From positions 352,001-416,000 of the forward strand of contig CAWVRN010000001.1 of NCBI GenBank assembly GCA_963932905.1: 64,000 bases of DNA, in the 5' to 3' direction. A program made the translations under genes and the position numbers. This DNA comes from an uncultured Bdellovibrio sp. (GTDB lineage: Bacteria; Bdellovibrionota; Bdellovibrionia; Bdellovibrionales; Bdellovibrionaceae). Each line of letters opens with the position of its first letter. The first letter of the stretch is position 1. Below the pieces are notes generated by a model. It saw nothing but the letters and a program-made list of their open reading frames with translations, ran no database searches and was not told the origin of the DNA. Below are positions 2,954 to 32,714 of the stretch, one piece after another.

Positions 2954-3034
2954 TAAAAAAATCTATTCTATTTTTAGAAAACAAAAGTTCAGATGCGATG
3001 CTCGTAGTGTGAGATAATTTATTTTTAAATATCA

Positions 3035-3403: not shown

Positions 3404-3409
3404 CAGATT

Positions 3410-3880: not shown

Positions 3881-3972
3881 AATTATCCTTCTAGAATTTT
3901 AAATTCCATATATTTAAAACTGACTCTAACTTTTGGTTGTCAGTTGCTCGTAATTTCAATTGTTTACAAAGA

Positions 3973-4011
3973 TTTTACTAACGGCGCGCCGCCAGTGCGC
4001 CGCTAGTAAAA
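3973..4011. other. GC-rich inverted repeat next to the relaxase (candidate oriT or terminator)
   Basis: TTTTACTAACGGCGCG...TGCGCCGCTAGTAAAA, 14/16 complementary. Confidence 0.4.
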
Positions 4012-4018
4012 CTAGTCA

Positions 4019-4762: not shown

Positions 4763-4776
4763 TTTTATTTACTTTT

Positions 4777-6252: not shown

Positions 6253-7139
6253 TTTTCCACATAAGTTTTTGTTAAGCTCACAATGACATCTCGCCCGGCG
6301 GGAACGGTGATATAGTCCTCGGTATCCTTAAAGGATTCGATCTGCCGGTTAGCTTCTTCCTGGGCCGAAGTAGACAAACCCTTTTTAATGGCATTTTCAA
6401 TACTCGCTTTAGGCATTGATTGCCCTAATGAGTTCATAGTTTCGCGCTCCATCATTATGTCACTAGCACCTGAGGCAACACTTAACCCCAGAGCAGCAAA
6501 TACCCGAGTGTCCGACTCAGTGTTTGTATCACCAGCGATTCCGGTGGAATAATTTTTAGGGTCCAAAACTTGGGCGCTAATATCAAATTCCTGCTCAGAT
6601 GGAAATAGGCCCTTGTTGATTTGGATACTGACTTTGCGTCCTCGTCCTGAATACATAACCTGTCCAAAAAGGACGGTGCCTTTTTCCAGTTCAGTTCCAT
6701 ACTTTGACCGGCCACCATAAGGTAATAAGATTTTTATTATTTGCCCTGGCTCACGAGTATCAACTGCCGTTAAAGTTTTTCCGATCATATTAGTTCCAAT
6801 CGGAATGCTTCGCTCTGGATCACTAGCTCCGTCTCTGACAATAACTTGACTGGCTTTTAAGTTAATCTTTGCCGCCTGCATACCTGACGTTGATCGATCT
6901 TTATTTCCCTTTGCGCTGCTTTTCGCTGAGGATTTTCCGTCACCTAAAATTTTTTTGGCTGTATCTGAGTACGTTCGCCTGTTGTCATGATTTACATTTG
7001 ACTCATTTTTATCGCGTTCTTTGCCGCTATTAACAAGTCGTTTCTCCGATTGCCCTAGAAAACTTGTGTCTTCTTTGTCTGACAATATGAATGCTGTAAT
7101 AATCATCAAAAACAAAATAGGGCCTCCTATGAGGCCCAC
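6249..7139 (-). CDS. VirB10/TrbI-like T4SS core protein (true start may be upstream, ~7250)
   Basis: N-terminal TM, IPIGT...GK, GIAGD, ITVPAGRDVIV C-terminal motif; position in the operon. Confidence 0.75.
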   Translation of the reverse strand: MGLIGGPILFLMIITAFILSDKEDTSFLGQSEKRLVNSGKERDKNESNVNHDNRRTYSDTAKKILGDGKSSAKSSAKGNKDRSTSGMQAAKINLKASQVIVRDGASDPERSIPIGTNMIGKTLTAVDTREPGQIIKILLPYGGRSKYGTELEKGTVLFGQVMYSGRGRKVSIQINKGLFPSEQEFDISAQVLDPKNYSTGIAGDTNTESDTRVFAALGLSVASGASDIMMERETMNSLGQSMPKASIENAIKKGLSTSAQEEANRQIESFKDTEDYITVPAGRDVIVSLTKTYVEK

Positions 7140-7246
7140 TCGCTTTAAGTTTACGACGTTTTTTTCACCATTTCGTTTTAAAAAGTACGACTTGATATCG
7201 GAAATTTTTCCTTTAAATAGGTTCCATCTATTTTTTTTGACTGAGT

Positions 7247-8011
7247 TTATAAAAACTCCTTTTTCAATAGAAAACTTTGATTTTCATTTGGCAACGATAT
7301 CAGTACTTTAGCATCTCGTTTTGAATCACTAGAAAAAAGGACCCGTACTTTAACCCGCTCATTGCTTTCAATTTGAGATTTTTCTTTCACGATCACTTGC
7401 TTATCCAAAGTCGCTCCATCTCGAGTGACCAATAGTTTTAAATCCTTAAGATCCAATTTATTTTTCGATGAATTCAATGCAAATAGATCTAAAGCATTTA
7501 GCTTCACTCCTTGAATGGATTGGATAGAATCGGGTCTAAGAATCAAGCCGTTCTTGAATTTTACTTCTATGCCGCGAATTTCTTTTTTCTCCGAACTAGC
7601 AAGGGCTCGATAACTAAATACCGGCCGCTGTTGATTTACTGAATCCCATTCTACCTTTACAAGGTCATCATGACTTTTATTCCCAACAATAAGATAGAAT
7701 CCATAGGTTCGATTTTCCGAATAGACAAACATATTGGTTTTAATTTGTCCGTGTGGCTGAATGGCAATATCATTTTCAATAAACTCAATGCCGAAATAGT
7801 TTTGATTTCCAATTACTATTTTCTTTGGCTTATCTTTAAATCTTAATACCGTTGATTTTCCTAGGCTTAGATTAATCGATTCCATTGAGCTAGGCCCTGC
7901 CACGATAGTCCTAACACCTCCCGCTAAAGCCATGTGGCACAGCGCCAATATCCCTAGTAATAGCACCAATAGCCTAATCGCCTTTTGCACCTTCATGCTC
8001 GATGATACCAT
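7247..8011 (-). CDS. VirB9/TraK-like T4SS periplasmic protein
   Basis: Signal peptide, INLSLGKSTVLRF...TNMFVYS.NRTYGFYL; lies between virB8-like and virB10-like genes. Confidence 0.65.
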   Translation of the reverse strand: MVSSSMKVQKAIRLLVLLLGILALCHMALAGGVRTIVAGPSSMESINLSLGKSTVLRFKDKPKKIVIGNQNYFGIEFIENDIAIQPHGQIKTNMFVYSENRTYGFYLIVGNKSHDDLVKVEWDSVNQQRPVFSYRALASSEKKEIRGIEVKFKNGLILRPDSIQSIQGVKLNALDLFALNSSKNKLDLKDLKLLVTRDGATLDKQVIVKEKSQIESNERVKVRVLFSSDSKRDAKVLISLPNENQSFLLKKEFL

Positions 8012-8600
8012 TTACGTATAGACCAAGCAGATTCCAATTCGTAACAGGTCCATCAACAATTTGAAAAGAGGCCTCACAAGGGACCACTAGCGGTATGCCC
8101 GAAATGCGAAGTACTTTATCGTATGTAGCCGTAATTTCCTTTTCGTTCACGTTGATTTTAACATGGGCGATGTCCTGTGAAACGGATTGGTTTTTAAAAT
8201 CCCGATCTCGCCTTTGAAGAAGCTGAATATTAATTTTTTCAGACAAAGCATCGCTAGTGAATGGACCTATTTCTTTTATGATTTTATCAGGATCAAGTTT
8301 TTCCCATTTAAAATATAGAAATAAATATTCCGTTAGAAAGCGACTAATTTGTTCTTCATCAATCTTAAAAGGCTTAGACTCACTTTTAAGCGGTATTTTA
8401 CTTGATCCGTCGTCATAAATCACAAGCGGTGATTTCAGCGATTGAAATAAAACCACGCACAGTAAAAGCATTCCTATACCGGCACAAATAGCGCCAATCC
8501 ATTTGTAAAGCCGTAGCTGATTATTTGTATCAATCCAGTGATCAAGAGTTGATCTTACAGTTTTTAAGTTTTCTTTTTTTAAACTATCTTCGTTTGTCAT
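7974..8600 (-). CDS. VirB8/TraE-like bitopic T4SS protein
   Basis: Single TM followed by an NTF2-like region ending GLYVNGI; ATG at 8600 with purine-rich RBS. Confidence 0.6.
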   Translation of the reverse strand: MTNEDSLKKENLKTVRSTLDHWIDTNNQLRLYKWIGAICAGIGMLLLCVVLFQSLKSPLVIYDDGSSKIPLKSESKPFKIDEEQISRFLTEYLFLYFKWEKLDPDKIIKEIGPFTSDALSEKINIQLLQRRDRDFKNQSVSQDIAHVKINVNEKEITATYDKVLRISGIPLVVPCEASFQIVDGPVTNWNLLGLYVNGIIEHEGAKGD

Positions 8601-9537
8601 TTCTTCCTTGTTTTTGATCTTTAGGTAAAAATAGATTTTCATATGTTTTTTTCATTTGATTCAGTTTTGGATTCAGTCGTTGCCTTAGTAGCTCCGCTCT
8701 GCCAACAAAAGGGTTAGTGATGGGCTTAGCTGCAAATTTTCCACCGGAAACAGCGCCGCTAGCTATGCCTTTAGCAAGTTTTGCCATTTGTGCTTTTAGA
8801 GCAACTCCTGTTGCCATAGTCGGAACAGCCGTAATAGCTGAAGCCGCGCTTTCCATACCATCATTAACTAGTGATCTTGTTGCAATTGGAATAAATAGCA
8901 TGCTTAGACCGATGGATAAGTTGATAATTATAGACATCAAATAGTCTTCCATCCCGGTCACTTTTGGATTCATAGCTAGCTTGAGTAACAATACGCCAAG
9001 AAGACTCCACAAAATTTTCCAAAGCACCACTTGCACTAGCCCCTTGTAGAGACTAAAAGTCACATGTTCAGTTTGTCTAGCCACATAGGCTAGTATCATC
9101 AGGGGGGAACACACAAATAAAATGGTCCACACAAAGTGAATCATTGCATTTGAAATAAAAAATCCCAAGTAGGCAATGATATAGGCCCCTATATTAAAGA
9201 TATAGAGTGCTGTCTCCCTAAGGTTGAACCAATCATTACTTGCGCTATTATAGTTTGGCCCAAGGTTCTTTAAAACGTCCCATAGTTTTTGAAGTCCATC
9301 AATTTTATCGGTAATGCTATCGCCGATTGTGGCAATAGCATTCAAGGTGGTATCAAAACTATATAGCAGTATCACCGAAACTAAAACCCTCCGGAAAATG
9401 TCTTTAACATCGGGCTCGTCATTTTTTAGAAACTCCATCACTATTAGCAATAGAACAAGGGGCACAATAAGAACCCAGTACGTCGAAACTAGTTCGCCGC
9501 GCAGACTTCGTCCCACATCGCTTAAATAATCAAACAT
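8584..9537 (-). CDS. VirB6-like polytopic membrane protein
   Basis: Multiple TM helices and Ala/Gly-rich C-terminal tail; operon position. Confidence 0.7.
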   Translation of the reverse strand: MFDYLSDVGRSLRGELVSTYWVLIVPLVLLLIVMEFLKNDEPDVKDIFRRVLVSVILLYSFDTTLNAIATIGDSITDKIDGLQKLWDVLKNLGPNYNSASNDWFNLRETALYIFNIGAYIIAYLGFFISNAMIHFVWTILFVCSPLMILAYVARQTEHVTFSLYKGLVQVVLWKILWSLLGVLLLKLAMNPKVTGMEDYLMSIIINLSIGLSMLFIPIATRSLVNDGMESAASAITAVPTMATGVALKAQMAKLAKGIASGAVSGGKFAAKPITNPFVGRAELLRQRLNPKLNQMKKTYENLFLPKDQKQGRNDKRR

Positions 9538-10266
9538 TTAAAATTTGATTAAACTCATTTGTGGGTTGAGTTCTTTAAAACTCTTTCCAAGATCCTGATT
9601 CACTCGCTGAAAGTTCGTAACGCTATCTTTTCCCATTTTGTTTTGCATTCCAAACTGCTCGCTTTGTAGTTTTAGCATCTGCGTATTAAGCCGAATCAAT
9701 TGCGACAGTGACCTAAGAATCTGAGCGCTGGTTTCCGCCTGTATTCTCATAGCCCCCTTGGGCGATGCTGCCCGGCTATCGATGGCCACTCGAATTGAGT
9801 TTTCTTCTTGCTTCACTGAGTATTCTTTAAAATCGTTTATCATTCTAAGACTTTCTGAAATGGTTTGATCATGTAGTCTTTGCATAAACTCTTCTTTGCT
9901 CTTAGGAACAGCACCATAGATTTCTGAAATCTTTTCCACAGCCTTTTTGAAATTTCGTATTTCAGAAAGTACTTTTTCATCTTTGATCGGTAAGGTTTCA
10001 ATAAGACCCAATGAATTATCTAGTCCCGAGTTAACCAGCCTCAAGTAATCCCGCTGGTCTTTTGCAAGTTCAATCATGGTCTTAAGCTGATAATACCGAC
10101 GAATATTCTCCTCGAGAATTTTTATCAAGTAGGAAACCTGTGTCCATCCAGATCCATCGGTAAACGCTCCAGCTTTTGGCGGGATCATGAGACCAATAAT
10201 TAAAAAGACAATTGCCGAGATCCGAAAATATCCCGCTGACAATATTTTTAATTTAAACACCTTCAT
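9538..10266 (-). CDS. VirB5/TrbJ-like secreted helical protein
   Basis: Signal peptide, coiled-coil, Gln-rich C-terminus; lies between virB4-like and virB6-like genes. Confidence 0.55.
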   Translation of the reverse strand: MKVFKLKILSAGYFRISAIVFLIIGLMIPPKAGAFTDGSGWTQVSYLIKILEENIRRYYQLKTMIELAKDQRDYLRLVNSGLDNSLGLIETLPIKDEKVLSEIRNFKKAVEKISEIYGAVPKSKEEFMQRLHDQTISESLRMINDFKEYSVKQEENSIRVAIDSRAASPKGAMRIQAETSAQILRSLSQLIRLNTQMLKLQSEQFGMQNKMGKDSVTNFQRVNQDLGKSFKELNPQMSLIKF

Positions 10267-12680
10267 GATCTATCCAATTCGTTTTCAAAGGCAAGTCGTT
10301 GCAGAATTTGAATCTTTGATTCATTCGGATGCCTATCCTCCATTTCTTTAATTTTTGCTTTTTCATTTCCGTCACTGGTGCAGATCCAGTAACTCAGTGG
10401 TTCCGGAACTAGTCTAAGAATAGCCTGATTTTCATCCTGCATAAGATAAAATTCAGAGTACTTTCCTTTCACGATCTCAAGGCTTTTTATCGCTTCTACT
10501 TGAGAGTCATTGAAATCAAAACTCGATTTAAAATCGTTCCAATCGATTTTTCGTTGACGCAAAATGAACACGTTTGTTGTATTCGGCATTAAGCTCTCGG
10601 CTAGGTCTTTGTCAGACAAAAAATCTCGATAGTTTTGGGAAATGCAATAAATCCCAGCGTTATATTTTCTAAAGGTACGAAAACAATCGATAGCAAAATC
10701 TCTTCCGCTCTCTGTTTTGAAAAGACGCTGAGCCTCATCAATTATCAACAAGTAAGGAGTTTGAAGGTCCCTAGCTGCCTCTGTCTTAATATAGCTTGTA
10801 AACAGCAGTAAAAATATGTCTTTTAACTCGCGATGGTTGTCTAGTCCTTTGATTTCAATCGTGATTAAATCTGATTTTAATTTTACGTTACTTTGCCGAT
10901 CTAGCATTCGTCCATAGGCCGTGTCGCCAGTCCAAGAAAATAATATTTGAGCGTATTTTCTCATTTCAGGCTCCACATGCTCAGTAAGAATTGTTTTTAA
11001 ATCAGTTAATACTGGAACCCGATCTTTTACACTTTGGTACATTCTAAAAATCGACTCTTCGAGAAGGGCTTTTTCCCGCTTTGGAAGCCCTTTTTTATCA
11101 TCGTCTTTTAAAATCAGCTCTAGCACTCCAAGCATCATTTTAATTCGTGATGGAGTCGGTACGAGTTCCCCCTCCTCAAGATCAAATAAGTTAATCGAAA
11201 TTCCTGATTCTAAAGTCAGGTCGATAAACTCGCCGCCAAGTACCTCAAGCAGCCGCTGCGATGAAGCGCCGTTATCAATCCATATAATTTTTGGATTTGG
11301 CTCTTGGCCGTAGAACTGTAGCATCAATTGGGCGACGCTAAACGATTTACCGGAGCCGCTACCGCCAAATACAAGCCCATTCCAATTGGGAAGTTCCTTA
11401 GCAAATGGGTCCAGTGAAAAAAGTGAATTTTCTCGATTTGGCAGCAAGCACACCGGTCTATTGTTACCCAGCCAGCATGAATAAAACGGTAGCAAGTGCG
11501 CGGCGTTTGACGTTTTAATCTTCTTAAGCCTAAACCCTTTGCAAATTGACGGCGCAGCCGCCATAAAAGCTTCCAGACCCGCATAGGTTTCTTGTATCCC
11601 TTCGGCCTGGTTTAAAGATCGAAAGGATCGCAAAACTTCGTCGGTTTTCGTTTCAAGTTCTTCTTGACTGTCGGCCCAAACGACGACGTTAAAATCCATC
11701 ATTACAATTTTCTCACACCCCTCATGAAGTTCACGAGTTAGACTCTCAATCTGCTCAAACTGGGTTTCACTTTCAATATCAGAAACATTCTTGCTACCTG
11801 AAGCCATCGAGCGCGCCACTCTTCGGCCTAGTTCAAGTTTACTTAGCTCCTTTTTTTGATTCAGACTTTTCAAATTTTGACTGATCCAAAAATGAAATGG
11901 CAGCTTAGTGAAATTCTCAATCATAGCCGCATGTGTTTTTCCTTCTGGCAAAATGGCAAGCGTTAATACCCGGAATTTTAAGTCAGAAATGGTAATAGCG
12001 TCTTTATCTACACTTATATCACTCAGTACAATTTGTTCAGACAGGGTATGATCAATTGAATCTTGACGAAGATACGGTAGGCCTATGCCTTCATGACGAG
12101 GTTTATTAAAATAGGTAAAAATATTTCCGTACCACTCAATAGGATCAATTTCAGTTGGAAATAGTCCCGCCGATTCAAGACCACTTTTAACAAGCGTCAT
12201 CGTTCTTTCAAATTTTTGACGATGTTGATCGTAGTCCTTCTTTGTCATTGCCTCAAATGATTCTCTTTTTTGCCAAAATCGTCTTTGCTTCATTCGATGG
12301 CTAGCGGACCTAACAAAGACAAAAATTTCTGGCACAAAATATTCTCGGTTTTTTGCGTTCTTTCTTAAATAGTTGACCCTGGCCTCACGTACTGGTTGAT
12401 AGCTATCTTTACAATTTTTAGAAACATCTTCGTGCTTTTGAATAATGCTTTCGACATCATGATTAAGTTTATAAAAAAGCTGTAAAGAATACTCTTCGGG
12501 CAAAGAGTTAAGGAGTCCCTCTATTTTTTCCGAAAAGTAATTTACCTCCGCCGGTGTTTTTAAACTGATATCGTTTCCGATAACTCTAAATCCCGAACCC
12601 AAAGATGCGTCACTAAAAACGACTAACTTGTCGTCTAGGTGCCAAAGTCCTAGCATGTCTTTAATTTGATTTGCCATCAA
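10263..12680 (-). CDS. virB4: VirB4/TraC-family T4SS ATPase
   Basis: 805 aa; Walker A GGSGSGKS, IDNGAS, Walker B IIDEA, FRKYNAG.SQ. Confidence 0.92.
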   Translation of the reverse strand: MMANQIKDMLGLWHLDDKLVVFSDASLGSGFRVIGNDISLKTPAEVNYFSEKIEGLLNSLPEEYSLQLFYKLNHDVESIIQKHEDVSKNCKDSYQPVREARVNYLRKNAKNREYFVPEIFVFVRSASHRMKQRRFWQKRESFEAMTKKDYDQHRQKFERTMTLVKSGLESAGLFPTEIDPIEWYGNIFTYFNKPRHEGIGLPYLRQDSIDHTLSEQIVLSDISVDKDAITISDLKFRVLTLAILPEGKTHAAMIENFTKLPFHFWISQNLKSLNQKKELSKLELGRRVARSMASGSKNVSDIESETQFEQIESLTRELHEGCEKIVMMDFNVVVWADSQEELETKTDEVLRSFRSLNQAEGIQETYAGLEAFMAAAPSICKGFRLKKIKTSNAAHLLPFYSCWLGNNRPVCLLPNRENSLFSLDPFAKELPNWNGLVFGGSGSGKSFSVAQLMLQFYGQEPNPKIIWIDNGASSQRLLEVLGGEFIDLTLESGISINLFDLEEGELVPTPSRIKMMLGVLELILKDDDKKGLPKREKALLEESIFRMYQSVKDRVPVLTDLKTILTEHVEPEMRKYAQILFSWTGDTAYGRMLDRQSNVKLKSDLITIEIKGLDNHRELKDIFLLLFTSYIKTEAARDLQTPYLLIIDEAQRLFKTESGRDFAIDCFRTFRKYNAGIYCISQNYRDFLSDKDLAESLMPNTTNVFILRQRKIDWNDFKSSFDFNDSQVEAIKSLEIVKGKYSEFYLMQDENQAILRLVPEPLSYWICTSDGNEKAKIKEMEDRHPNESKIQILQRLAFENELDRS

Positions 12681-12987
12681 TTCTAACTCCTAATATTTTT
12701 TCACGATTTGATTGGTCATTTCCGGCGGCAAAGAATCCCTTGGTTAAATGAAATTTTACCAAGTGGATAAGATAGTCATCCGGCTTTCCTCTTTTTCCAA
12801 AATATAAAATGCCGAGTAAAGTGGCCGGTAAGACAATCACAAAAATAACAGACAATGAGGTCCGACCAAAAAACAAATTCATTGTTGAAGCAAATATCAG
12901 AACGGCTAAAATGTCGGGGGCTTCCATGCCCCCAATTTTGATTTTAGCGTCCAGCTTCCTGTGGACAGTAGATTCTTTAAACTCCAC
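12661..12987 (-). CDS. VirB3-like membrane protein
   Basis: 108 aa, two TM helices, immediately upstream of virB4. Confidence 0.7.
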   Translation of the reverse strand: MEFKESTVHRKLDAKIKIGGMEAPDILAVLIFASTMNLFFGRTSLSVIFVIVLPATLLGILYFGKRGKPDDYLIHLVKFHLTKGFFAAGNDQSNREKILGVRIDGKSN

Positions 12988-13298
12988 TACATCCCTGAAA
13001 TACTTTGAAGCCAGCGGATAAGCATGGGTGCTAAAAACCCAACAATACTAGCCACTGCCACAAGTACCATTCGAGACTTTGCCTCAGCATCACCCGTTGC
13101 TGCCAGTATCGCTGCATACACAAGGCCCAGAACGCTGACCGCAGGCAAGAGCACGTTTACAAGTCCCTTTGTTACGCCGCCCACCTTACTCTGAAAGTCG
13201 CCGCCTCCGTACTGCGCAAATGATAGTTCTGGCATAAAAAGGGTAATGCCAATATAGGCAATTGCACCCAAAGCAATCCAAGATTGATTTTTTATCAA
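12987..13298 (-). CDS. VirB2/TrbC-like pilin
   Basis: Signal peptide ending ELSFA followed by two hydrophobic helices; upstream of the virB3-like gene. Confidence 0.75.
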   Translation of the reverse strand: MIKNQSWIALGAIAYIGITLFMPELSFAQYGGGDFQSKVGGVTKGLVNVLLPAVSVLGLVYAAILAATGDAEAKSRMVLVAVASIVGFLAPMLIRWLQSISGM

Positions 13299-13301
13299 AT
13301 A

Positions 13302-13640
13302 CTACTCTTCCGTGTGAAGTGCTAAAATCCGTGAATAAGGTCCTAGTTCCATAAAAATATAGGGACCGGCACTTTTAGAGCTTTTCCCCGAACCAATCGG
13401 CGAAGACCGAACAAATTTTCCTTCTTTTCTTAGACTAACATCAACGCGGTAGTGAACCGTTTCGCCATCCGACCCCGTTGGCCTTAAGAAAATGTATTTT
13501 TCATCGGGCATGGCATCGACCTTAAGTCGAAACTCACCTTTATCTTCGTGGTAGAATGCTACTCCCGCCGGAAATTTTCGGCCGGTTTCTTTATCAATCC
13601 ATTCAAGATCTAATTTTTTATTTTTTACTCTGTTTTCCAT
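13302..13640 (-). CDS. Small beta-rich protein, possibly DUF736-like ssDNA-binding
   Basis: Internally duplicated G-x-(A/G) strand pattern (PAGVAF...FRLKVD; PIGSG...YIFMELG). Confidence 0.4.
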   Translation of the reverse strand: MENRVKNKKLDLEWIDKETGRKFPAGVAFYHEDKGEFRLKVDAMPDEKYIFLRPTGSDGETVHYRVDVSLRKEGKFVRSSPIGSGKSSKSAGPYIFMELGPYSRILALHTEE

Positions 13641-13689
13641 ATTTAATTTTCCTCCCTAGAATCTAGTTTGTTGTTTGTTTTGTTCTGCT

Positions 13690-13941
13690 TTATGCTGATT
13701 TAAGGTTTAAAAGTTCTTCTCTCATTAAACTCAGCGCCTTAGCGTGGGTCACTTTTACGTCGTAAAGTTCCATACCCAGTGTTTGAGCAATATGTTTTAG
13801 CCCCATGCCTAGCCAATATTTTAAATATACGATGGCCCTCTCGTCGGCTGGCAAATTCATCGCTATTTGTTTAACCTCCAATTTTTCTTTGTCGTTCAAC
13901 GGAAAACTCCATGTCTTCTGGTTTTCTATTTTCACGTGCAA
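13690..13941 (-). CDS. Stand-alone sigma-70 region 4 HTH protein
   Basis: LPADERAIVYLKYWLGMGLKHIAQTLG...VKVTHAKALSLMR. Confidence 0.8.
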   Translation of the reverse strand: MHVKIENQKTWSFPLNDKEKLEVKQIAMNLPADERAIVYLKYWLGMGLKHIAQTLGMELYDVKVTHAKALSLMREELLNLKSA

Positions 13942-13948
13942 TTACCTT

Positions 13949-14161
13949 TCATCCTAAAAAGTGAATTCGCATAAATTTAAGTTCATTTTGTCGCTTGATT
14001 TCATCAATCTTGCGATCATCAACTTCACTGCTGAATAGTCTTTTCCAAAAACTATTCTTTAGTTCTTTTCCCATTGGAATTTTCGAGTTCTGATTTGTAT
14101 CTTTAGGCGCATTCTTTTTCATCTTGTTCCGCCTCCTCTTTGCTATCGATTTCGTTTTCAT
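13949..14161 (-). CDS. Small basic hypothetical protein
   Basis: 70 aa ORF in the leading part of the ICE operon. Confidence 0.45.
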   Translation of the reverse strand: MKTKSIAKRRRNKMKKNAPKDTNQNSKIPMGKELKNSFWKRLFSSEVDDRKIDEIKRQNELKFMRIHFLG

Positions 14162-14321
14162 TATAGGAAAGTATTTCCCTTGCTTCCCTCAATGCTTTCA
14201 AATTCTCTGCTTCGGGATCACTCCAGTAGTCTTCAAAATAAAAACATCCTGAGCAGTGCGAGTAGGTTCGCAACACTTCTAAATTCCCCCCGCAACGCGG
14301 GCATTTTTTTCTAATTGCCAT
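14103..14321 (-). CDS. Small zinc-ribbon protein, first gene of the transfer operon
   Basis: CPRC...CSGC; RBS GAAGGGGG upstream. Confidence 0.6.
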   Translation of the reverse strand: MAIRKKCPRCGGNLEVLRTYSHCSGCFYFEDYWSDPEAENLKALREAREILSYNENEIDSKEEAEQDEKECA

Positions 14322-22936: not shown

Positions 22937-22946
22937 AGAATACACT

Positions 22947-23495: not shown

Positions 23496-23506
23496 GAACC
23501 GCAACA

Positions 23507-24636: not shown

Positions 24637-24637
24637 T

Positions 24638-25431: not shown

Positions 25432-25613
25432 AAAATTTCGTCTGGAGAAAAACATTTAGCATAGATCACTTGAAATTAACTAAGCACGGAAAGACCTGGC
25501 AGGTGAGAAACAAGGCCGCCAAATCTACCCTACTTTCCCGATCAACAAAACAGACTATTTAGAATTGTGAGTAAGCTAATTTAGATTACCAAAAATTTCA
25601 ACAAACTGATCAG

Positions 25614-26594
25614 CTATCGAAAATAAGAAAATCTACCGATTGAAATTTTGTTTTCGGTAGAAATTTCAAACAGTTTATTCAAATACAAATAACCAGTGGC
25701 TAGCATTTTTTCCGAAACTATAGCCTCACACCAACCCTGACGAAAAAAATAAGCGTGACGATCAATATCTTTTTTGAAGTCCAAATACGGATAACATGTC
25801 GATTCAACAACATCCCCCGCGAGCCAATACAAGTTATCACTCCCAACAAATTTAAAATAAAAAGGAACATCACCCCGACTAAGTTGAATTTTTTCAGAAT
25901 CAAGAATATTATCCGGAGGGTTGACTAACGAACTTTTATATTCTGATGTGTTTCTAACAATGACTCGAACGGGGTGGTCTTTCAAATCCAGATTCTCAAA
26001 AACGTTATCGATTTCTTTTTTCTTGCCCACCACGATACTAAACAAATCCAAATATCCATTTACCATTTCCTGCTTCTGTTCAAGAGTGTGCGCTGTTTTG
26101 TTATTTGCAAAAACACCAATACCAGCCAGTTCGTACCCAATATGTTTAAATGGCAAAAGCAGTGTCTCACTTGGCAAAATCAGCCGGGTAAACACGACTT
26201 CCGCATCGACGACTTGAAAATGACTTTCCGTTTTAATCAAGTTCTGCTTATGCAAGTCTCTGATTCCAAAAATATAACTGTAGGCGATGAGTACGCCAAA
26301 TGCATAAAAATGTTCGTTAGTAACATCCCCAGGCCATTCAACTACTTCTTTTGATCTACCTCGCCATTTTCCAAGTATTTCAATATCGAGATTAAACAAA
26401 TAGTGTGAAAGCGCTTTATAAGGATCGCGCGCTTTGATTTCAAAAATATTTTTAAGCGGACTTGTTTGTCCAAAGAACAACCATTCCCAGTAAACCGATC
26501 TGGGTTTATCATAATAAAAACAAGGCAAAGCGTCCGTGCCTCGCTGAACTCTTTTAACCTGCTGTCCGAAATTATGCGTATCTGCTAAAAACAC
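25614..26594 (-). CDS. Stand-alone LanM-type dehydratase/kinase domain (DUF4135-like), no cyclase
   Basis: Motifs DTHNFG, KPR, FGVLIAYSYIFGIRDLHKQN, VVDAE, VRVIVRNTSEY, E..QLSRGDVPFY. Confidence 0.85.
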   Translation of the reverse strand: MFLADTHNFGQQVKRVQRGTDALPCFYYDKPRSVYWEWLFFGQTSPLKNIFEIKARDPYKALSHYLFNLDIEILGKWRGRSKEVVEWPGDVTNEHFYAFGVLIAYSYIFGIRDLHKQNLIKTESHFQVVDAEVVFTRLILPSETLLLPFKHIGYELAGIGVFANNKTAHTLEQKQEMVNGYLDLFSIVVGKKKEIDNVFENLDLKDHPVRVIVRNTSEYKSSLVNPPDNILDSEKIQLSRGDVPFYFKFVGSDNLYWLAGDVVESTCYPYLDFKKDIDRHAYFFRQGWCEAIVSEKMLATGYLYLNKLFEISTENKISIGRFSYFR

Positions 26595-26599
26595 GAGTC

Positions 26600-26680
26600 C
26601 TATCCTGCTGAACTGAGTCCAGCATTGTGACTTTCAGCTTCCGCTTCTAAAGCTTCTAGGTCGATATAAACAATTTCCAT
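26600..26680 (-). CDS. Putative RiPP/signal precursor peptide MEIVYIDLEALEAEAESHNAGLSSAG (26 aa; not in the ORF track)
   Basis: Strong RBS GGGAGGG 3 nt before ATG; fills the gap between the kinase stop (26709) and the dehydratase start (26594); acidic leader and Ser-containing tail. Confidence 0.85.
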   Translation of the reverse strand: MEIVYIDLEALEAEAESHNAGLSSAG

Positions 26681-26708
26681 ATACCCTCCCTTTATTGGGT
26701 TAATTCCC

Positions 26709-28478
26709 TTATTGGACGAACTCCGAAGCCATTTGATTTTCAAAATCAAATTCGATTTCAGAAAGTGCATCTTTTGGGATTATTTTTACTTTTAATTCGC
26801 GAGCCCGGTTTTTGACTGCCTCATCGTCGTACATTCCTGTGACAAGAAAGCTCTCAAACTTAAGACCATGCCTGTCGATTAGGTCCAGGCCATTTGATTT
26901 TGATTTTAAATCGTAGTCCATCAAGAACAGACGTGATGAAAAAATGTCATTTTCATTCTTTAGCAACCATTTATCAAGTTCAGTATCCGAGTATAAGTGA
27001 ACAAGCTTTAGCATATCAACATCATCTTGGAGGATATGCTCCCACGTTTTATGAATAAGCTCATCGTCGTCTACAATTACTAACTCTTGGCCTGGAAACA
27101 ATTTGATTCGGCTACCTTGGCTTAACATGTTCACGCGTTTTTCAGGAATTAAAGGAACCGTCAAAGTAATCGCCGTCCCAATACCTTCCTCTGACACAAT
27201 TTCTACTCTGCCGTTTAGCGAATCCAAAATATTTTTAACATGAAAAAGTCCAAGGCCACTGCCGTTTGTCTTTCCAAAGGTGGCGCCCTCGCTCATTAAC
27301 TTAGGAATTATGTCTTTAGGAATACCTTTGCCTGAATCTTTGATAAGGATCAAAATGTTTCCTTCATCCTTCGACAGACTTAATTGTATTTGGCCTTTAT
27401 CTGAAATAGCTTCAATGGAGTTTGTAACTAAATTTAGCAATGCCAAGGTTATCTGAGTGCCTGATCCCGCCATTACTAATTTTGGCCCAACACGATTTAC
27501 AAAATCTATTTCTATAGACGTCGTGAAATTCACGCTAAGCTCATTTCGTTTTTGTTCTACAATCTGGTTGATAATTTGAACTAGTTCGAATTCATCAACC
27601 TGCTTTGGTTCGCCAGTTGCGTTTGACTTGATTAATTTTTTTGAAACTGACGAGATTTGATCAACGATTTTCTTAAGAGCTTCTTTGTCCAATTCACTGT
27701 TTCCATTTGATTTATTTAGGCAAAGAGACAGTGCGCTTAGAGAGCCATTCAGGGCATGACTGACTTGTTTTGCCATTTCTATTTGGCCTTCTAAAAACTT
27801 TTTTTGAGAAACTTCAGATTCAAGTTCATTTATTCGTTGAAAAAGTCGCTCCAGCGAAGAATCAAGTTTTTTAAGTTCGTCAATTTTCACGTCCTCTAGT
27901 AAAAGCCCATTTTTTGCTGTATGGGACAAATTACTTTGCGCTTGAGTTAGCGTTTCAATTCGATTTTCAAGTGGTTTTGCAATTTTATTTGCTACTTTCG
28001 AAAGACTCTTTTTTAAGCTTAAAAATACCAAAATTAAAAATCCTGCAAATACTGAGATCAGGGCGAGCAACCGATATAGTGGGCTCATGAGATCAGTTTC
28101 GATTTCAAGTTTCATCACTTGACCGTTTGGTAAAACTTCTGAGTATGAGTCAAATGATGAAAATCCAAATTTTGTCAGAGGGCCAGCATGTGCCCAATGT
28201 CGCTCATTTAAAAAAAGATCTGCGCGAACGGGAAACTCTTGGGTTTTTGACCACGTATCAACAATTCGATTCAATTCGCCATCAAGATTGAAAGTATTTT
28301 GACTAGTCACCTGCGCAACTATTATTTCCTTTAAATGTGAAACGATAAATTGTTTTGATTGTTCTTTGGTGTGTATGCTCCACACTAAAGCGTATACTAC
28401 AATCCCTGCGATGGCCGCCACTAAGCTTAGTGTAAGAATGGTTTTTACTTTCTGGTGAATCAGTTTTGATAGTTTCAA
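26709..28478 (-). CDS. Hybrid sensor histidine kinase (2 TM, HisKA, HATPase, C-terminal receiver)
   Basis: QVSHAL H-box, NLVTNSIEA, DSGKGI, GSGLGL; IVDDD...MDYDL receiver. Confidence 0.92.
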   Translation of the reverse strand: MKLSKLIHQKVKTILTLSLVAAIAGIVVYALVWSIHTKEQSKQFIVSHLKEIIVAQVTSQNTFNLDGELNRIVDTWSKTQEFPVRADLFLNERHWAHAGPLTKFGFSSFDSYSEVLPNGQVMKLEIETDLMSPLYRLLALISVFAGFLILVFLSLKKSLSKVANKIAKPLENRIETLTQAQSNLSHTAKNGLLLEDVKIDELKKLDSSLERLFQRINELESEVSQKKFLEGQIEMAKQVSHALNGSLSALSLCLNKSNGNSELDKEALKKIVDQISSVSKKLIKSNATGEPKQVDEFELVQIINQIVEQKRNELSVNFTTSIEIDFVNRVGPKLVMAGSGTQITLALLNLVTNSIEAISDKGQIQLSLSKDEGNILILIKDSGKGIPKDIIPKLMSEGATFGKTNGSGLGLFHVKNILDSLNGRVEIVSEEGIGTAITLTVPLIPEKRVNMLSQGSRIKLFPGQELVIVDDDELIHKTWEHILQDDVDMLKLVHLYSDTELDKWLLKNENDIFSSRLFLMDYDLKSKSNGLDLIDRHGLKFESFLVTGMYDDEAVKNRARELKVKIIPKDALSEIEFDFENQMASEFVQ

Positions 28479-29995
28479 TTTGACCTCATCAAAATCGTTT
28501 CAAAAGGCATCGTATGAAATCCAAGTGGATGGGCTGGAATCGTTTCTACTTTATCACTCCACAGTCCCGAAGCCGGAGTGCCAAAGTAAAGCGGGATATT
28601 TGTGTAATGCGCGAGAATCGATTTCTGTATATCTTGATACATTCTAGATCTTTTTTCCTGACTAAACTCTTTGGCAGCGCTAGCAATCATCTCATCAATT
28701 TTTGAATCATCGACATGAAAATAATTTGATTCGTATTTTCCTTTAAAATAGGTCAGAACTGAATAGCCGTCAGGATAATCTGTCCCTTTACGACTGACCG
28801 TAGCTTCGGCGGTTTTTGAAAACATTCGTGTGAGTTTTTCGCCGCGAGAAAATTCTGTCAGAACCACTTCGATTCTATCGGTTGTCCATTTTTCTTTAAG
28901 ATACTCAGCCAGTTTCTTATCAAATTCAGATCCAGCCAAATAGTCCAGCACAAAGGAAACCTTTTTGCCGTCGTAGGGTTTATAGTTTTGCTCCAATATT
29001 GGTTTTTCGAAAATCGCCCCATAAAATCCATCTGGAATTAGACCAAATGCTGGAATCAACTTTTGATCTCCCAAAGTTTTTACAAGATGCTTTTGGTCGA
29101 TTTTGTAATAAAGCTCTCGTCTAACTTCAAATGGTACAAATTTGGGATTTAGAATAACAAATGATTCATACGTTAACTCAGTCGGGCTTGATACCCAGCC
29201 CATTTTCTTAAGTTTCACCGTCGAATCGGCATCAACTTTGTCAGTGTCTAAAGAATCCGTCTGATCAGTCATCGCTAGGCTGATAGGACTCTCTTTCGTA
29301 GCAAAAAATGAGATTAAAAGCGGAGGACGCGCACTATCAATGCTGTCTTTGCGCCATTTCTCTAGCGTGTACTTTGAAATTTCAGTTTTTTTAAGTTTAT
29401 AGGGTCCACTAAATCCACCTAGTACCGACAGATTAGGATTTGATTTAAAATCCTCTATGTCCAGGATAGCACAATCAACAACGGCCAGTTGTTTTAAAAA
29501 TAGAGCCGATGGATGAGACAATGAAATTTGAACCTCAGATTCATTTTTTACTTTTACTCCGAATTTTTTTAGATCCCAGGATTTTTTAAACTCATCAGCA
29601 CCGGAAATCACATCGATATCGGCAGCCATCGACGAGCCCAAATAAAATAGTCGAGCTAGACTCATTTGAACATGAGTAGCCGTGATTTTCTTTCCGTTAG
29701 AGAAATTTAAGTTTTTAAGCTTTACGGTATAGCTTAAATGATCATCGGATTCGCGCCAAGACTCAGCTAAATCCGTAAGCACATCTCCGTTCTGATTGTA
29801 TCTAAATAGCCCCCGATGAAGCTGCATAGCGATCATCATAGAAAACGCGTCTTCCATTTTCTGAGGATCAATTTGTAAATTTACATCAGGCAAATGAATA
29901 TTTAAATTCATGTTTTCCTTTCTCTCTTTAGTACAAGCTAACATCGCGATGGTTGTCGCCCCTAAAAGGACAATTTTAAAGTGCCGGGCGATCAC
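28475..29995 (-). CDS. Family 5 (OppA/DppA-like) solute-binding lipoprotein without cognate permease
   Basis: Lipobox MLAC; IDPQ, GLFRY, DLAESW, FSNGKKITA, GPY, IPLY. Confidence 0.88.
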   Translation of the reverse strand: MIARHFKIVLLGATTIAMLACTKERKENMNLNIHLPDVNLQIDPQKMEDAFSMMIAMQLHRGLFRYNQNGDVLTDLAESWRESDDHLSYTVKLKNLNFSNGKKITATHVQMSLARLFYLGSSMAADIDVISGADEFKKSWDLKKFGVKVKNESEVQISLSHPSALFLKQLAVVDCAILDIEDFKSNPNLSVLGGFSGPYKLKKTEISKYTLEKWRKDSIDSARPPLLISFFATKESPISLAMTDQTDSLDTDKVDADSTVKLKKMGWVSSPTELTYESFVILNPKFVPFEVRRELYYKIDQKHLVKTLGDQKLIPAFGLIPDGFYGAIFEKPILEQNYKPYDGKKVSFVLDYLAGSEFDKKLAEYLKEKWTTDRIEVVLTEFSRGEKLTRMFSKTAEATVSRKGTDYPDGYSVLTYFKGKYESNYFHVDDSKIDEMIASAAKEFSQEKRSRMYQDIQKSILAHYTNIPLYFGTPASGLWSDKVETIPAHPLGFHTMPFETILMRSN

Positions 29996-31154
29996 TTAAA
30001 ACTCCAATTTTTTTCGTGCTACTTAGCACCACTAATCCAATTCCAATACTTATAGCTACTGCTGCTCGAAGCAATGTTTCTGTTTCAATCGGTATAATTT
30101 TTGACCAGACTCCTACTAAAATTTCACCAACAGACAAAATGATAACCATGATTGCAAATCGAGCACTTGAAACGGCGCCGATAGCTGAAACCGGAGTGTC
30201 AGCCTGAATGTGCCCAGATATTCTATGCAAAATAACCCAGTAGGATATATCTTTTATAAACATAACAATAAGGGTTTCAACAGTTGGTCCCGCGATTTGA
30301 CCCAGAAGTAAAAACGAGCCGCCAAGCACAAACCAAAACGGAATAGAGCTAAATTTCTTAGCGAATGACCTCTCCATAAACCCAGCAATCCAAACTGATA
30401 AACCATAGCTTGTAAGAAACAATGCATTCCAAACGGCGCTATCTCCGGCCACACGAGCAAAGAATGAAATCAAACCGCCAACAGAAACAGCAAGACCTAT
30501 ATCAAGTATCGCCGCCCGTTTGTTAAAAATGAAATGCTCTTTAAATTTTGTACTCCATGAAATGTTTCCCTGATTTGATTGATTTATTTTCTCTTCGTCT
30601 GGCATAAAATAAACTATCAGTCCGTTAACTAGAAACGTTGCCAAATCAATAAGGATTGCTACCTTAAGTGAAAGATACTGTATAAGTACTAAACCAATAA
30701 GCCCCGCAAACAGCGTGGCGCCCTGACTGGCTTTCATTTGCCAAATGGCGTGCTTGGCGTTGGAATCATAACTGCCGTCACTCAATAATTTTGATATTTT
30801 AACTCGGCTCCCGGTTTGAAAATTTACTAACACTGCTCGAAAGACACATAGGCCTAGAAATAATATGTAGTTCGTCTGAGTTTCATTCCATGTCCAAAGA
30901 AGTAAAAGAGATACAATACCGGCAAGGACTTCAAGAACAACCACTGTTTTCTTAGCACTAAACTGATCGGCTAAATGTCCCCACACGCCTAGAATAAAAA
31001 CAGGTATAAAACGTTGTAGCCCCAGAATTAAACTTATCTGCCCAAGATCAAAACCCGCTTGAGGCATAAACGCCACGAGACAAAGATTAAATGCAAGGCT
31101 CCCCATCGAAGACAAAAACTGACCTAAATAAAAAAGAAATGCCTTATTAAACAC
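29976..31154 (-). CDS. MFS transporter (macrolide/peptide exporter-like)
   Basis: About 12 TM segments, GQFLSSMG, GHLADQFSAK motif A. Confidence 0.88.
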   Translation of the reverse strand: MFNKAFLFYLGQFLSSMGSLAFNLCLVAFMPQAGFDLGQISLILGLQRFIPVFILGVWGHLADQFSAKKTVVVLEVLAGIVSLLLLWTWNETQTNYILFLGLCVFRAVLVNFQTGSRVKISKLLSDGSYDSNAKHAIWQMKASQGATLFAGLIGLVLIQYLSLKVAILIDLATFLVNGLIVYFMPDEEKINQSNQGNISWSTKFKEHFIFNKRAAILDIGLAVSVGGLISFFARVAGDSAVWNALFLTSYGLSVWIAGFMERSFAKKFSSIPFWFVLGGSFLLLGQIAGPTVETLIVMFIKDISYWVILHRISGHIQADTPVSAIGAVSSARFAIMVIILSVGEILVGVWSKIIPIETETLLRAAVAISIGIGLVVLSSTKKIGVLSDRPAL

Positions 31155-32566
31155 TAGATAGACCTTTCAAAAATTTGATTTTCTGTAAGGCCAAGGTTTT
31201 TCTTCATTTCAAAATATCGTGTTTTTCCAATTCCTAGTAATGAGATTAGCTTTTTATTGTCGCCGTTTAAAATTTGTAATGCTCTCCTCAGATAGTTTTT
31301 CTCGACCCAGTTTATTCCTAAGTTAAATGTATCGGCGGAAATCTCGCTCTCAGACTTTGGAAATAGATCGTTCGGAATACCTACTTCACTAGGAGGCGAC
31401 GGCTGACTTTGCAAGCTCAAATGGTCCGGCTTAATCCATGTTAACGAGTCACTTTTGGTATGGATACAGGCACGTTCAATCACATTATCAAGCTCGCGAA
31501 TATTGCCGCGCCAAATGTGGTTATCTAATTTTTCTTTCGCGTCGGTGGTAAGCTTTGCTAGTGGATGATACTTTTTTATAAACGCCTCAGCCAAAACCGC
31601 AATGTCTTCTTTCTTTTCTCTAAGCGGCGTAGTGTAGAGCATGATCTTATTTAGACGATAAAATAGGTCTTCCCTAAATTTTCCTTCGTTGACCATTTTT
31701 TCTAAATTACGATTGGTCGCTGCGATTATCCTGACGTCAACGGCAATTTCTTTTTCTGATCCCACTGGAGTTATCACTTTTTCCTGCAACACCCTAAGCA
31801 AACGAACCTGCGCAGATAAACTCAGTTCGCCGATTTCATCTAAGAAAAGGTCGCCTTTGTTTGCCGCTAAAAACAAACCCTGATTGTTTTCCGTAGCGCC
31901 AGTGAAGGAGCCTTTTTTGTGTCCAAAGAGAGTGCTTTCAATAAGATTTTCAGGAATGGCGCCGCAGTTAACCGCAACGAAAGGCCTTTTAATATTTCCT
32001 TCTTGCAAATGAAAGGTTCTAGCAATCAACTCTTTTCCAGTGCCTGCTTCACCTTGAATCAAGACTGTCGCGTTTGTGCCCTTGTATTTAGCGATTTCAG
32101 ATTTTAGTTTTAAGGTGGCTACTGAGTTTCCAAGAATCTGATAATGCGAAGATTCTTTGGCCGCCGCAACTTTTGCTAAGTCTGACGTTTCTTGTTTTAT
32201 GGCCGACATTTTTAAGCAATTAGAGATCCTAAATTTTAAACTAGCGACTAGGTCTGGGGAGTTCTTAACGACATAATCGTCGGCTCCAGATTTCATCATG
32301 TTGACGATTACTGACGGATCGCTTTCACTAGTGAGGATAATAACCGGAAAGTCTTTACTTCGCTGTTTTACTGCCCTGAGGACATCTAAGCCAGACACCT
32401 CGGGCATGTTCAAATCAACGATCATTAAATCAGGACGAGCTTGCCCAAGAAGGCGAAAAGCCAATCCAGCCTCAGTAGCTGTGATTACCTTATACTCTTC
32501 AGCTAATGCATCCTTGAGCTGATCCAGGTGATTTTGGTCATCATCTAAAAGCAAAAGTGTTTTCAT
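31154..32566 (-). CDS. NtrC-family sigma54-dependent response regulator
   Basis: Receiver (LLDDD, VDLNMP), GEAGTGKE, GSFTGA, LFLDEIG, FREDLFYRL, GNIREL, C-terminal HTH. Confidence 0.95.
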   Translation of the reverse strand: MKTLLLLDDDQNHLDQLKDALAEEYKVITATEAGLAFRLLGQARPDLMIVDLNMPEVSGLDVLRAVKQRSKDFPVIILTSESDPSVIVNMMKSGADDYVVKNSPDLVASLKFRISNCLKMSAIKQETSDLAKVAAAKESSHYQILGNSVATLKLKSEIAKYKGTNATVLIQGEAGTGKELIARTFHLQEGNIKRPFVAVNCGAIPENLIESTLFGHKKGSFTGATENNQGLFLAANKGDLFLDEIGELSLSAQVRLLRVLQEKVITPVGSEKEIAVDVRIIAATNRNLEKMVNEGKFREDLFYRLNKIMLYTTPLREKKEDIAVLAEAFIKKYHPLAKLTTDAKEKLDNHIWRGNIRELDNVIERACIHTKSDSLTWIKPDHLSLQSQPSPPSEVGIPNDLFPKSESEISADTFNLGINWVEKNYLRRALQILNGDNKKLISLLGIGKTRYFEMKKNLGLTENQIFERSI

Positions 32567-32592
32567 CTACGCCCCCTGACGTTAGATAACAT

Positions 32593-32609
32593 AGCGAGAA
32601 CAATGCCAA
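32593..32609 (-). promoter_or_regulatory. Sigma54 -24/-12 promoter for the signalling operon
   Basis: Minus strand TTGGCATTGTTCTCGCT = GG-N10-GC, ~27 nt upstream of the regulator ATG. Confidence 0.75.
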
Positions 32610-32696: not shown

Positions 32697-32714
32697 AGTT
32701 CGCAGAGGCGAACT
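32697..32714. promoter_or_regulatory. Candidate upstream activator sequence
   Basis: Perfect inverted repeat AGTTCGC-AGAG-GCGAACT ~90 bp upstream of the -24 box; IHF-like ATTCAATGTTTTA (minus strand, 32627-32639) in between. Confidence 0.55.

Follow-up and report, generated by a model that had tools for sequence, protein, structure and literature searches.

A 26-residue acidic peptide gene paired with a stand-alone mini LanM-type enzyme in Bdellovibrio: a candidate modified-peptide precursor in a predicted self-activating operon

LanM-type lanthipeptide synthetases such as CylM (PDB 5DZT) and LicM2 (PDB 6ST5) are proteins of about 900-1000 amino acids with a LanC-like cyclase, and relatives that depart from this plan have been described. 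As the sections of PMC9505594 devoted to it present the matter, PoyF of the polytheonamide pathway is a stand-alone, cyclase-less LanM dehydratase that dehydrates without ring formation. EmbM of 'Ca. Eudoremicrobium' is treated in parts of PMC9505594 and PMC9259500 as a cyclase-less LanM-like enzyme and the sole maturase of phospeptin, turning two adjacent Thr of a Cys-free precursor into phospho-Thr, and the phospeptin cluster is there said to have a histidine kinase and a response regulator as well (PMC9505594). In the pertinent passages of PMC10676384, CcaM (LanMbC, of the dehydrazoles) figures as a divergent DUF4135 dehydratase whose dehydroalanines stay as they are, with no lanthionine formed. 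Judging from these same passages, PoyF, EmbM and CcaM act on long-leader precursors in settings other than the one reported here, which is a stretch of 64,000 nucleotides from an uncultured Bdellovibrio sp. (contig CAWVRN010000001.1, positions 352,001 to 416,000; hereafter the window). In this stretch a gene for a peptide of 26 amino acids directly precedes the gene for a small stand-alone enzyme of the LanM type, and we argue that the peptide is most likely the substrate of its neighbour. The features on which the argument turns are the following.

26600..26680, minus strand: putative precursor peptide gene, 26 amino acids and TAG stop (sequence and translation, family conservation)
26684..26690, minus strand: Shine-Dalgarno sequence GGGAGGG, 3 nucleotides 5' of the peptide ATG (sequence)
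25614..26594, minus strand: stand-alone mini LanM-type kinase/dehydratase, 326 amino acids, GTG start (PF13575, structure, residues)

The peptide is read on the minus strand from the ATG at 26680-26678 to the TAG at 26602-26600 and has the sequence MEIVYIDLEALEAEAESHNAGLSSAG, 26 amino acids long. The stop codon of a kinase gene (26711-26709) lies 28 nucleotides upstream of it, and the GTG of the enzyme gene, at 26594, follows 5 nucleotides past the peptide stop. An original prediction, made from the letters of the window, had proposed a 26-residue open reading frame (ORF) with the ribosome-binding site GGGAGGG exactly between the kinase and the enzyme, and sequence and translation confirm it. 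They likewise agree with its description of an acidic N-terminal part and a small-residue tail, with three Ser, one His and no Cys, to which can be added that Lys and Arg are absent and that the acidic part is conserved in the family. A mechanical ORF list gives the same frame as a 56-residue ORF that begins at the ATG at 26770 and overlaps the 3' end of the kinase gene; comparison of homologous loci identified the internal ATG at 26680, preceded by the Shine-Dalgarno sequence, as the conserved start, and not the ATG at 26770.

Homologues of the enzyme were drawn from 61 related genomes, from genome contigs (15 loci) and from metagenome contigs (25 loci), and the enzyme was present in 12 of the 61 related genomes searched, among them the genome of the window, which has it a second time. 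After removal of the duplicate loci (L001, L006, L020-L022, L026, L029 and L031) 20 loci were examined, plus 23 metagenome loci, L054 and L059 having come without upstream sequence. The equivalent small ORF that the original prediction expected upstream of homologous enzymes, belonging to the same family, preceded by a Shine-Dalgarno sequence and 24-28 residues long, was found at 43 of the 44 family loci, where it lies immediately upstream of the homologous enzyme. All 43 peptide genes, which amount to 33 distinct peptide sequences, have a Shine-Dalgarno-like motif 5' of the start, and their ends range from 1 nucleotide inside to 39 nucleotides upstream of the beginning of the enzyme match (gap -1 to 39 nucleotides, 43 loci). 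In L033 (39% identity) the peptide ORF was not found within the mere 181 nucleotides of upstream sequence, and the end of a transposase-like ORF lies about 70 nucleotides upstream, in place of the peptide gene, as in a decayed copy. Two distant relatives without the peptide, L012 (27% identity) and L034 (at 23%, and belonging to a longer frame), were not counted as family. As a background control the genome's first 12 contigs were scanned, and of their 1310 ORFs with 250 or more amino acids only 8 (0.6%) have an ORF of 22-30 residues, preceded by a Shine-Dalgarno sequence, that ends 0-25 nucleotides upstream. A profile of the peptides compared with 131,071 six-frame segments of the genome returned exactly two matches (E 8e-13 and 2e-12; the next at E 3.2), both directly upstream of the two enzyme paralogues, a search that is informative only for the absence of further copies, as the profile includes both matched sequences.

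The peptide genes also show the mark of selection on the encoded protein. Each of the 189 informative pairs has a higher proportion of synonymous differences (pS, median 0.79) than of non-synonymous differences (pN, median 0.33) by Nei-Gojobori counts, these pairs being related and not independent tests. Between the window peptide and its in-genome paralogue we counted 13.5 synonymous and 2.5 non-synonymous differences, and between it and L003 there are 3 synonymous differences and no non-synonymous one. Because the family loci (43 of 44) stand so far apart from the background (8 of 1310), and pS exceeds pN in all informative pairs, chance can be excluded, and we are nearly certain that the 26-residue ORF is a real gene. 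That the ORF is left untranslated, its conservation being that of a regulatory element in the RNA or DNA, is hardly credible, given the dominance of synonymous changes in every informative pair, the preservation of start codon, Shine-Dalgarno sequence and length over 33 distinct sequences, the lack of any match to Rfam families across 25400-33000, and a local fold that is no better than that of shuffled sequences.

Conservation within the 33 distinct peptides is concentrated in two parts. The first is acidic, with Ile in column 8 of the alignment (32 of 33), Asp or Asn in column 9 (33 of 33), Leu in column 10 (30 of 33), Leu or Ile in column 13 (33 of 33) and Glu in column 14 (31 of 33). The second lies at the C terminus, where column 23 is Gly in 31 peptides, column 25 Ser in all 33 and column 26 Ser in 32, with between one and three variable residues separating the Ser-Ser pair from the stop; column 20, between the two parts, is an aromatic residue or His. 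The signature of the family is thus an acidic I-[DN]-L-x-x-L-E helix followed by a C-terminal G-x-S-S-x(1-3), the most variable columns (21-22, 24 and 27-29) flanking the Ser-Ser. Net charges range from -3 to -7, and Cys is found in only 5 of the 33 peptides, always C-terminal of the Ser-Ser, the other 28 having none. The original prediction had derived the mature part from SHNAGLSSAG; the tail region stands, and the conserved unit within it, G-x-S-S-x(1-3), is shorter than was proposed. Its remark that a Gly-Gly cleavage motif is missing holds for the window copy but not for the family, since seven of the 33 peptides read GG. In 28 of the 33 the position before the conserved Gly is Ala, Gly or Ser, and cleavage at such a putative [AGS]-G site, if it is real, would release a part of only 4-6 residues. 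This site presumably recalls double-glycine leaders, a likeness that is only partial by the count of hydrophobic positions.

The original prediction had spoken of an adjacent enzyme, leaving unnamed both its type, a cyclase-less and N-terminally truncated LanM-type dehydratase, and its context, a sigma-54 operon with predicted autoregulation and a conjugative element. The enzyme passes the Pfam family PF13575 (DUF4135) with 56.3 bits (cut-off 29) and falls below the LanM NCBIfam model TIGR03897 (46.6 against a cut-off of 304). Its AlphaFold2 model (predicted local distance difference test 90, predicted template-modelling score 0.91) had CylM (E 7.8e-9) and LicM2 (E 1.1e-7) as the top Foldseek matches, and superposes on CylM with Z 18.6 and a root-mean-square deviation of 3.2 A over 275 residues and on LicM2 with Z 15.9, while lipid kinases of the PI3K/Vps34 type rank behind these with Z of at most 12.0. 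The structural alignment begins at residue 248 of CylM, which means that the enzyme starts at the P-loop and lacks the approximately 250 N-terminal residues of LanM. It therefore shares with CylM and LicM2 the lipid-kinase-like fold, the Pfam family, the catalytic residues and a small gene directly upstream, and differs from them in the missing N-terminal part, in the missing LanC-like cyclase (the enzyme has no Pfam match to LanC), in its length of 326 against about 900-1000 amino acids, and in the window peptide, which is not a Cys-bearing substrate. With no Cys in 28 of the 33 peptides, no lanthionine is expected in the product. By these comparisons the enzyme would be, in kind, the dehydratase half of a LanM, outside the definition of a lanthipeptide synthetase.

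The residues on which catalysis would depend are kept. In an alignment of 18 sequences K30, D113, H115, N118 and D130 are invariant; D113, H115, N118 and D130 correspond to D347, H349, N352 and D364 of CylM, the phosphorylation set (hidden Markov model alignment to CylM and LicM2), and K30, in a KPR motif, corresponds to the catalytic Lys K274, a placement made through the KPR motif of LicM2 and the spacing. R210 and T216, also invariant in the 18 sequences, align to R506 and T512 of CylM, and D5 and H7, conserved at 90% or above, to the P-loop residues D252 and H254 by way of the LicM2 alignment, these four being elimination residues. By alignment, all nine phosphorylation and elimination residues of CylM are thus present; their roles are those assigned by mutagenesis in the relevant part of PMC4550811. 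Since the elimination set is kept, we favour dehydration to dehydroalanine over phosphorylation as the fairly probable outcome. The peptide could also be a substrate of the enzyme and end as a phosphopeptide (pSer-pSer), and the precedent for this is phospeptin, whose description (PMC9505594, PMC9259500, in the portions concerned) has a pair of neighbouring hydroxyl residues and neither Cys nor cyclase, much as the target in the window consists of two adjacent residues; yet EmbM is said in that account to lack critical elimination residues (PMC9505594), whereas the counterparts of D252, H254, R506 and T512 are invariant or nearly so among the 18 sequences, and we regard a phosphopeptide as rather improbable.

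The comparison with the cyclase-less relatives can be drawn out along the same lines. EmbM resembles the window enzyme in being cyclase-less and paired with a Cys-free precursor that bears two adjacent hydroxyl residues, and differs from it, as far as the sources describe EmbM, in lacking the elimination residues and stopping at phospho-Thr; the leader of its precursor EmbA is of the Nif11 type and includes a Gly-Gly site, and the window peptide has neither feature. PoyF, likened to the window enzyme by its published description and not by sequence, is similarly a stand-alone LanM dehydratase domain, although it serves a proteusin precursor with a long NHLP leader in a large multi-enzyme cluster, in contrast to the 26-residue precursor and the single enzyme found here. 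CcaM, in the passages that treat it, is leader-independent and azole-dependent, which sets it apart. The survey of DUF4135 proteins in PMC10676384 left out, according to its description there, proteins shorter than 500 amino acids, and the present enzyme family therefore falls outside its scope.

This family is not small. There are 124 homologues at E <=0.001, among the matches listed 215-364 amino acids long, and those that are named belong to Bdellovibrionaceae, Bacteriovoracia or metagenome-assembled genomes of Bdellovibrionota. A profile search of 1.84 billion representatives gave 269 clusters (50% identity) at E <=1e-30, of which the best 150 representatives are all 151-423 amino acids long, and no fused or longer form was found among proteins of 572-2000 amino acids, a negative that counts as weak evidence. 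A family of at least 269 clusters suggests that the kinase/elimination core may work as a gene of about 330 residues without the N-terminal part or the cyclase of LanM. As an observation on the enzyme gene itself, the nucleotide identity to the cassette of a sister genome (L020) is 90-98% from 32745 to about 26146 and then falls to 70% and 56%, in the second half of the enzyme gene (window positions 25600-26145); this points to a recombination breakpoint inside the gene, and the overall protein identity of 73% to L020 conceals a mosaic.

The strict co-occurrence of the peptide with an enzyme whose family acts on Ser or Thr of ribosomal peptides is what makes the peptide most likely a substrate of the adjacent enzyme, as the original prediction had proposed. 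What the product might then be used for depends on the genes that precede the pair, which are listed here with the regulatory sequences.

26525..26544, minus strand: weak terminator-like hairpin and U-run within the beginning of the enzyme gene, a possible attenuator (fold against shuffles)
26709..28478, minus strand: hybrid sensor histidine kinase with two transmembrane segments, periplasmic loop, HATPase_c and C-terminal receiver (domain matches, synteny)
28475..29995, minus strand: family 5 solute-binding lipoprotein, SBP_bac_5, of the peptide/nickel/opine type (PF00496 E 1.6e-26, lipobox ...MLAC)
29976..31154, minus strand: MFS transporter, putative exporter (PF07690 E 4.5e-13; weak match to TIGR00900)
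31154..32566, minus strand: NtrC-type response regulator, sigma-54 activator (Response_reg and Sigma54_activat, E 8.7e-67)
32593..32608, minus strand: putative sigma-54 promoter TGGCATTGTTCTCGCT, 27 nucleotides upstream of the activator ATG (motif, conservation)
32697..32714, minus strand: palindrome AGTTCG-N6-CGAACT, putative activator binding site, about 105 nucleotides upstream of the sigma-54 motif

The six genes are on one strand, overlapping or abutting, in the order NtrC-type activator, MFS transporter (major facilitator superfamily), SBP_bac_5 lipoprotein, hybrid kinase, peptide and enzyme. We found no ABC permease beside the gene of the family 5 binding protein, whose nearest solved relatives are distant (best E 7e-13). 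At 11 of the 15 genome-contig loci synteny extends to all five neighbouring proteins; L027 has its binding-protein and MFS matches in pieces, L023 ends at a contig end, L033 begins at the enzyme and L034 is the distant relative already mentioned. L021 is a decayed copy in which only the C terminus of the kinase, the peptide and the enzyme are left. Clustering of all flanking ORFs revealed no further gene conserved with this cassette, a protease included, which is consistent with the original prediction of a protease encoded elsewhere. A C39 peptidase was considered as the cassette's protease and rejected, being a lone match on contig C9 that is unlinked to the cassette. The hairpin at 26544-26525 was considered as a terminator following the peptide gene and rejected as well, its fold being no better than that of shuffles (z -0.70).

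Upstream of the activator gene the motif TGGCA[CT]-N5-T[CA]GC[TA] is found once per locus and at the same place in 11 of the 11 loci that span the region and in the in-genome paralogue. A loose sigma-54 pattern (at most 2 mismatches) occurs in the window at the level of chance (24 observed against 26 expected), so that the site of the operon would be meaningful only through its position and conservation. Of 12 loci, 8 have the palindrome in perfect form (6+6), at -102 to -107; by eye it is imperfect in three and not seen in L024, and its half-site differs by lineage (AGTTCG, AGTCTC, GTCTAT) with the dyad symmetry kept, as would be the case for the site of a dimeric activator, which it resembles. 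From the sigma-54 motif, the palindrome and the gene order we predict positive autoregulation of the operon that ends in the peptide and the enzyme; one operon with predicted self-activation would hold a candidate signal gene, a sensor and a regulator. A second strict sigma-54 motif, TGGCACATGTATCGCA (48775-48790, minus strand), is the only other one in the 64-kilobase (kb) window and lies near a gene for a stand-alone receiver domain (47780-48202, plus strand).

Sensing through a periplasmic binding protein, a two-component system and a sigma-54 activator is found in LuxP-LuxQ-LuxO, AioX-AioS-AioR and CBP-ChiS, which the present cassette resembles in its permease-less periplasmic binding protein, hybrid kinase and NtrC-type activator. 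Peptide control of conjugation is known from PrgZ/pCF10 and from PhrI-RapI of ICEBs1, in Gram-positive bacteria, and the likeness to the PrgZ/pCF10 type lies in an OppA-family binding protein on a conjugative element. We know of no case among these sensing and conjugation systems that makes use of a ribosomal peptide altered by an enzyme of the LanM type, and to our knowledge cyclase-less LanM relatives are familiar only as rare accessory enzymes (PoyF, EmbM). The abstracts and selected passages of the literature searched held no description of the peptide and enzyme family or of the cassette. Overall, the locus appears to be a new combination of known kinds, joining cyclase-less LanM chemistry of RiPPs (peptides made by the ribosome and modified after translation) with circuits of binding protein, kinase and sigma-54 activator, in which a family of mini LanM enzymes is paired with one tiny precursor.

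Considered as a whole, we slightly favour the reading that the peptide is a RiPP-type precursor, that its Ser-Ser is dehydrated, and that it feeds an autoinducing circuit. In such a scenario the first two thirds from the N terminus, acidic and prone to form a helix (I-[DN]-L-x-x-L-E-x-E-[AS]-E), would serve as the recognition or leader part and the invariant C-terminal G-x-S-S-x(1-3) as the modification site. The 326-residue enzyme would phosphorylate the invariant Ser, and probably its neighbour too, with ATP and would then eliminate the phosphate to give dehydroalanine, the product being a linear dehydro-peptide or a short fragment of it, because there is no cyclase and, in most copies, no Cys. 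The co-conserved MFS transporter would export this product, the family 5 lipoprotein and the hybrid kinase would sense it in the periplasm, and the NtrC-type regulator would activate the sigma-54 promoter of its own operon, closing a positive feedback loop on a cassette that would travel on an integrative conjugative element. We infer the substrate relation, dehydration in preference to phosphorylation, processing, export, sensing and the control target of the circuit, and with them the role of the product as a signal; the autoinducer loop, taken by itself, is the best-fitting reading, and we hold it to be evenly poised between true and false.

Several points weigh against this explanation. 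Modification, cleavage, export and sensing are all steps that we infer, and the related loci are kin, so that the counts given above overstate their independence. The cassette holds neither a protease nor an HPt domain that would join the receiver of the hybrid kinase to the regulator. Export of a peptide by an MFS transporter would be unusual. The enzyme lacks the approximately 250 N-terminal residues of LanM and would have to recognize a leader without them. The distant solved relatives of the binding protein have varied ligands (peptides, opines, nickel complexes). Finally, the two in-genome copies share the tail AGLSSAG while their kinases are only 72% identical, a poor fit to simple private 'pherotypes'.

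The same genes may be read in other ways. The RiPP product could be a secreted effector (an antimicrobial, a protease inhibitor, a metal binder or a predation factor) and not the ligand of the sensor, which would respond to another cue, with the MFS transporter providing export or self-protection. It agrees with such a role that the distant relatives of the binding protein indicate no specific ligand, that a Rhs-type toxin module is nearby on the element, and that many RiPP clusters contain a two-component system and a transporter. The peptides, however, are strongly acidic (-3 to -7) with a tiny variable part, unlike known membrane-active peptides, and a permease-less binding protein before a kinase, behind a promoter with predicted self-activation, fits a sensing loop; we consider the effector unlikely. 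The peptide could alternatively remain in the cell and, small and acidic as it is, regulate the kinase or the enzyme or serve one of them as a partner, or it could be an upstream ORF that only sets the expression of the enzyme, for the window copy has no signal sequence and no canonical double-glycine site, the cassette has no protease or ABC exporter, and the 5-nucleotide spacing suggests translational coupling to the enzyme. The amino acid conservation, which includes an invariant Ser beside an enzyme that modifies Ser or Thr, nonetheless exceeds what an upstream ORF for coupling would need, and the MFS transporter and periplasmic binding protein are co-conserved, making an intracellular role very improbable.

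If the product is the ligand, as in the autoinducing circuit that we favour, it would be an enzymatically modified ribosomal peptide autoinducer in Bdellovibrionota, on a mobile element, the mini LanM family being part of one circuit with binding protein, kinase and sigma-54 activator. It would also, if true, offer a tractable way to study how the cells of predatory bacteria communicate, and the enzyme a minimal scaffold for the installation of dehydroalanine in peptides.

Traces of expression were sought in four RNA-labelled runs with small shares of the stretch, compared over 25400-32700, where uncovered parts carry no meaning. Two metatranscriptome runs, from two studies, each have one short contig over the peptide gene, at 26539-26776 (0 mismatches) and 26564-26755 (2 mismatches), a third run has a piece within the enzyme gene, and the fourth (X16) is probably DNA. 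The two contigs are a weak hint that the peptide gene is transcribed; they are short and of low depth and their libraries may also hold DNA, which is a further point against the explanation set out above. Pieces at 31.5-32.0 kb were considered as a transcript of the cassette and rejected, as they match the conserved AAA+ domain over short lengths and with mismatches, and stem from other organisms.

The cassette lies upstream of a set of transfer genes.

1566..14321, minus strand: conjugation and integration genes, downstream of the cassette (Pfam matches)

These comprise a sigma70_r4-like gene, a TrbC-like pilin, a VirB3-like gene, VirB4, TrbI, an FtsK-type coupling protein, Replic_Relax and an integrase, the Pfam families matched being Phage_integrase, Replic_Relax, FtsK_SpoIIIE, TrbI and the TraC/VirB4 type. 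At L020 and L026-L029 sigma70_r4-like, TrbC-like pilin, VirB3-like and VirB4 genes lie 0.7-4 kb downstream of the cassette; in L024 a pilin-like gene is found at +7.5 kb, in L030 and L031 there is no more than a weak VirB4-like match 11-13 kb downstream, and the VirB4 query had no match in the genomes of L022 and L025. On contig C3 the second cassette of the window's own genome is followed, about 40 kb downstream and on its own strand, by a VirB4 of 89% identity, the two in-genome copies forming two blocks, transfer genes and cassette, at 78-80% nucleotide identity, with the second copy of the element backbone at G000:C3:47600-59152. The DNA similarity of the two element copies ends before the integrase gene, and they thus appear to carry different integrases. 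The cassette is usually, not always, found within a conjugative element, and adjacency is its only link to the transfer genes, before which we found no strict sigma-54 motif. For the attachment sites, a search near the integrase end for repeats of the tRNA-Ser region gave as its sole match one of 21 nucleotides (90% identity, E 0.03), and comparison of the flanks with nine genomes of the genus resolved no empty site. A bolder proposal is that the cassette is the conjugative element's own quorum system based on a modified peptide, in which cleavage at [AGS]-G would free a dehydro- or pyruvoyl-peptide of 4-6 residues that reports the number of carriers and tunes transfer or cargo; we hold this to be doubtful, and if true the RiPP class would be a new one, with a LanM-type enzyme devoted to making a signal and a peptide autoinducer in a Gram-negative lineage.

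Other features of the element and its surroundings may be recorded. The Rhs-type toxin module (14822-25243, plus strand) stands between the transfer genes and the cassette, on the strand opposite to theirs, and consists of a 2704-residue Rhs/YD-repeat protein followed by small ORFs and an ORF of 374 amino acids (23512-24636). The N-terminal part of the latter repeats the last conserved Rhs segment (an identical 16-mer is found at 22150 and 23748), which gives it the look of an orphan toxin tip, and over its first 1.5 kb the Rhs gene has a second copy on contig C3, at 89% identity. On the other side of the cassette, a stretch of about 4.5 kb (32748-37232) separates it from a segment of 386 nucleotides (37233-37618) and holds a 282-residue ORF without Pfam match, a TPR protein, an SPFH/Band 7 protein and two further ORFs; because the 386-nucleotide segment abuts the cassette in the C3 copy, the 4.5 kb were either inserted here or deleted there. 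By the presumed end of the element tRNA-Ser(GCT) and tRNA-Arg(ACG) genes stand back to back (37902-38265), with a clostripain-family peptidase (39030-40529) just past the pair. Past the integrase, a stretch of 305 nucleotides (1178-1482) has an 85%-identical repeat at G000:C1:349553-349849, 2.4 kb before the window start, and may be what is left of an attachment region or of an adjoining element.

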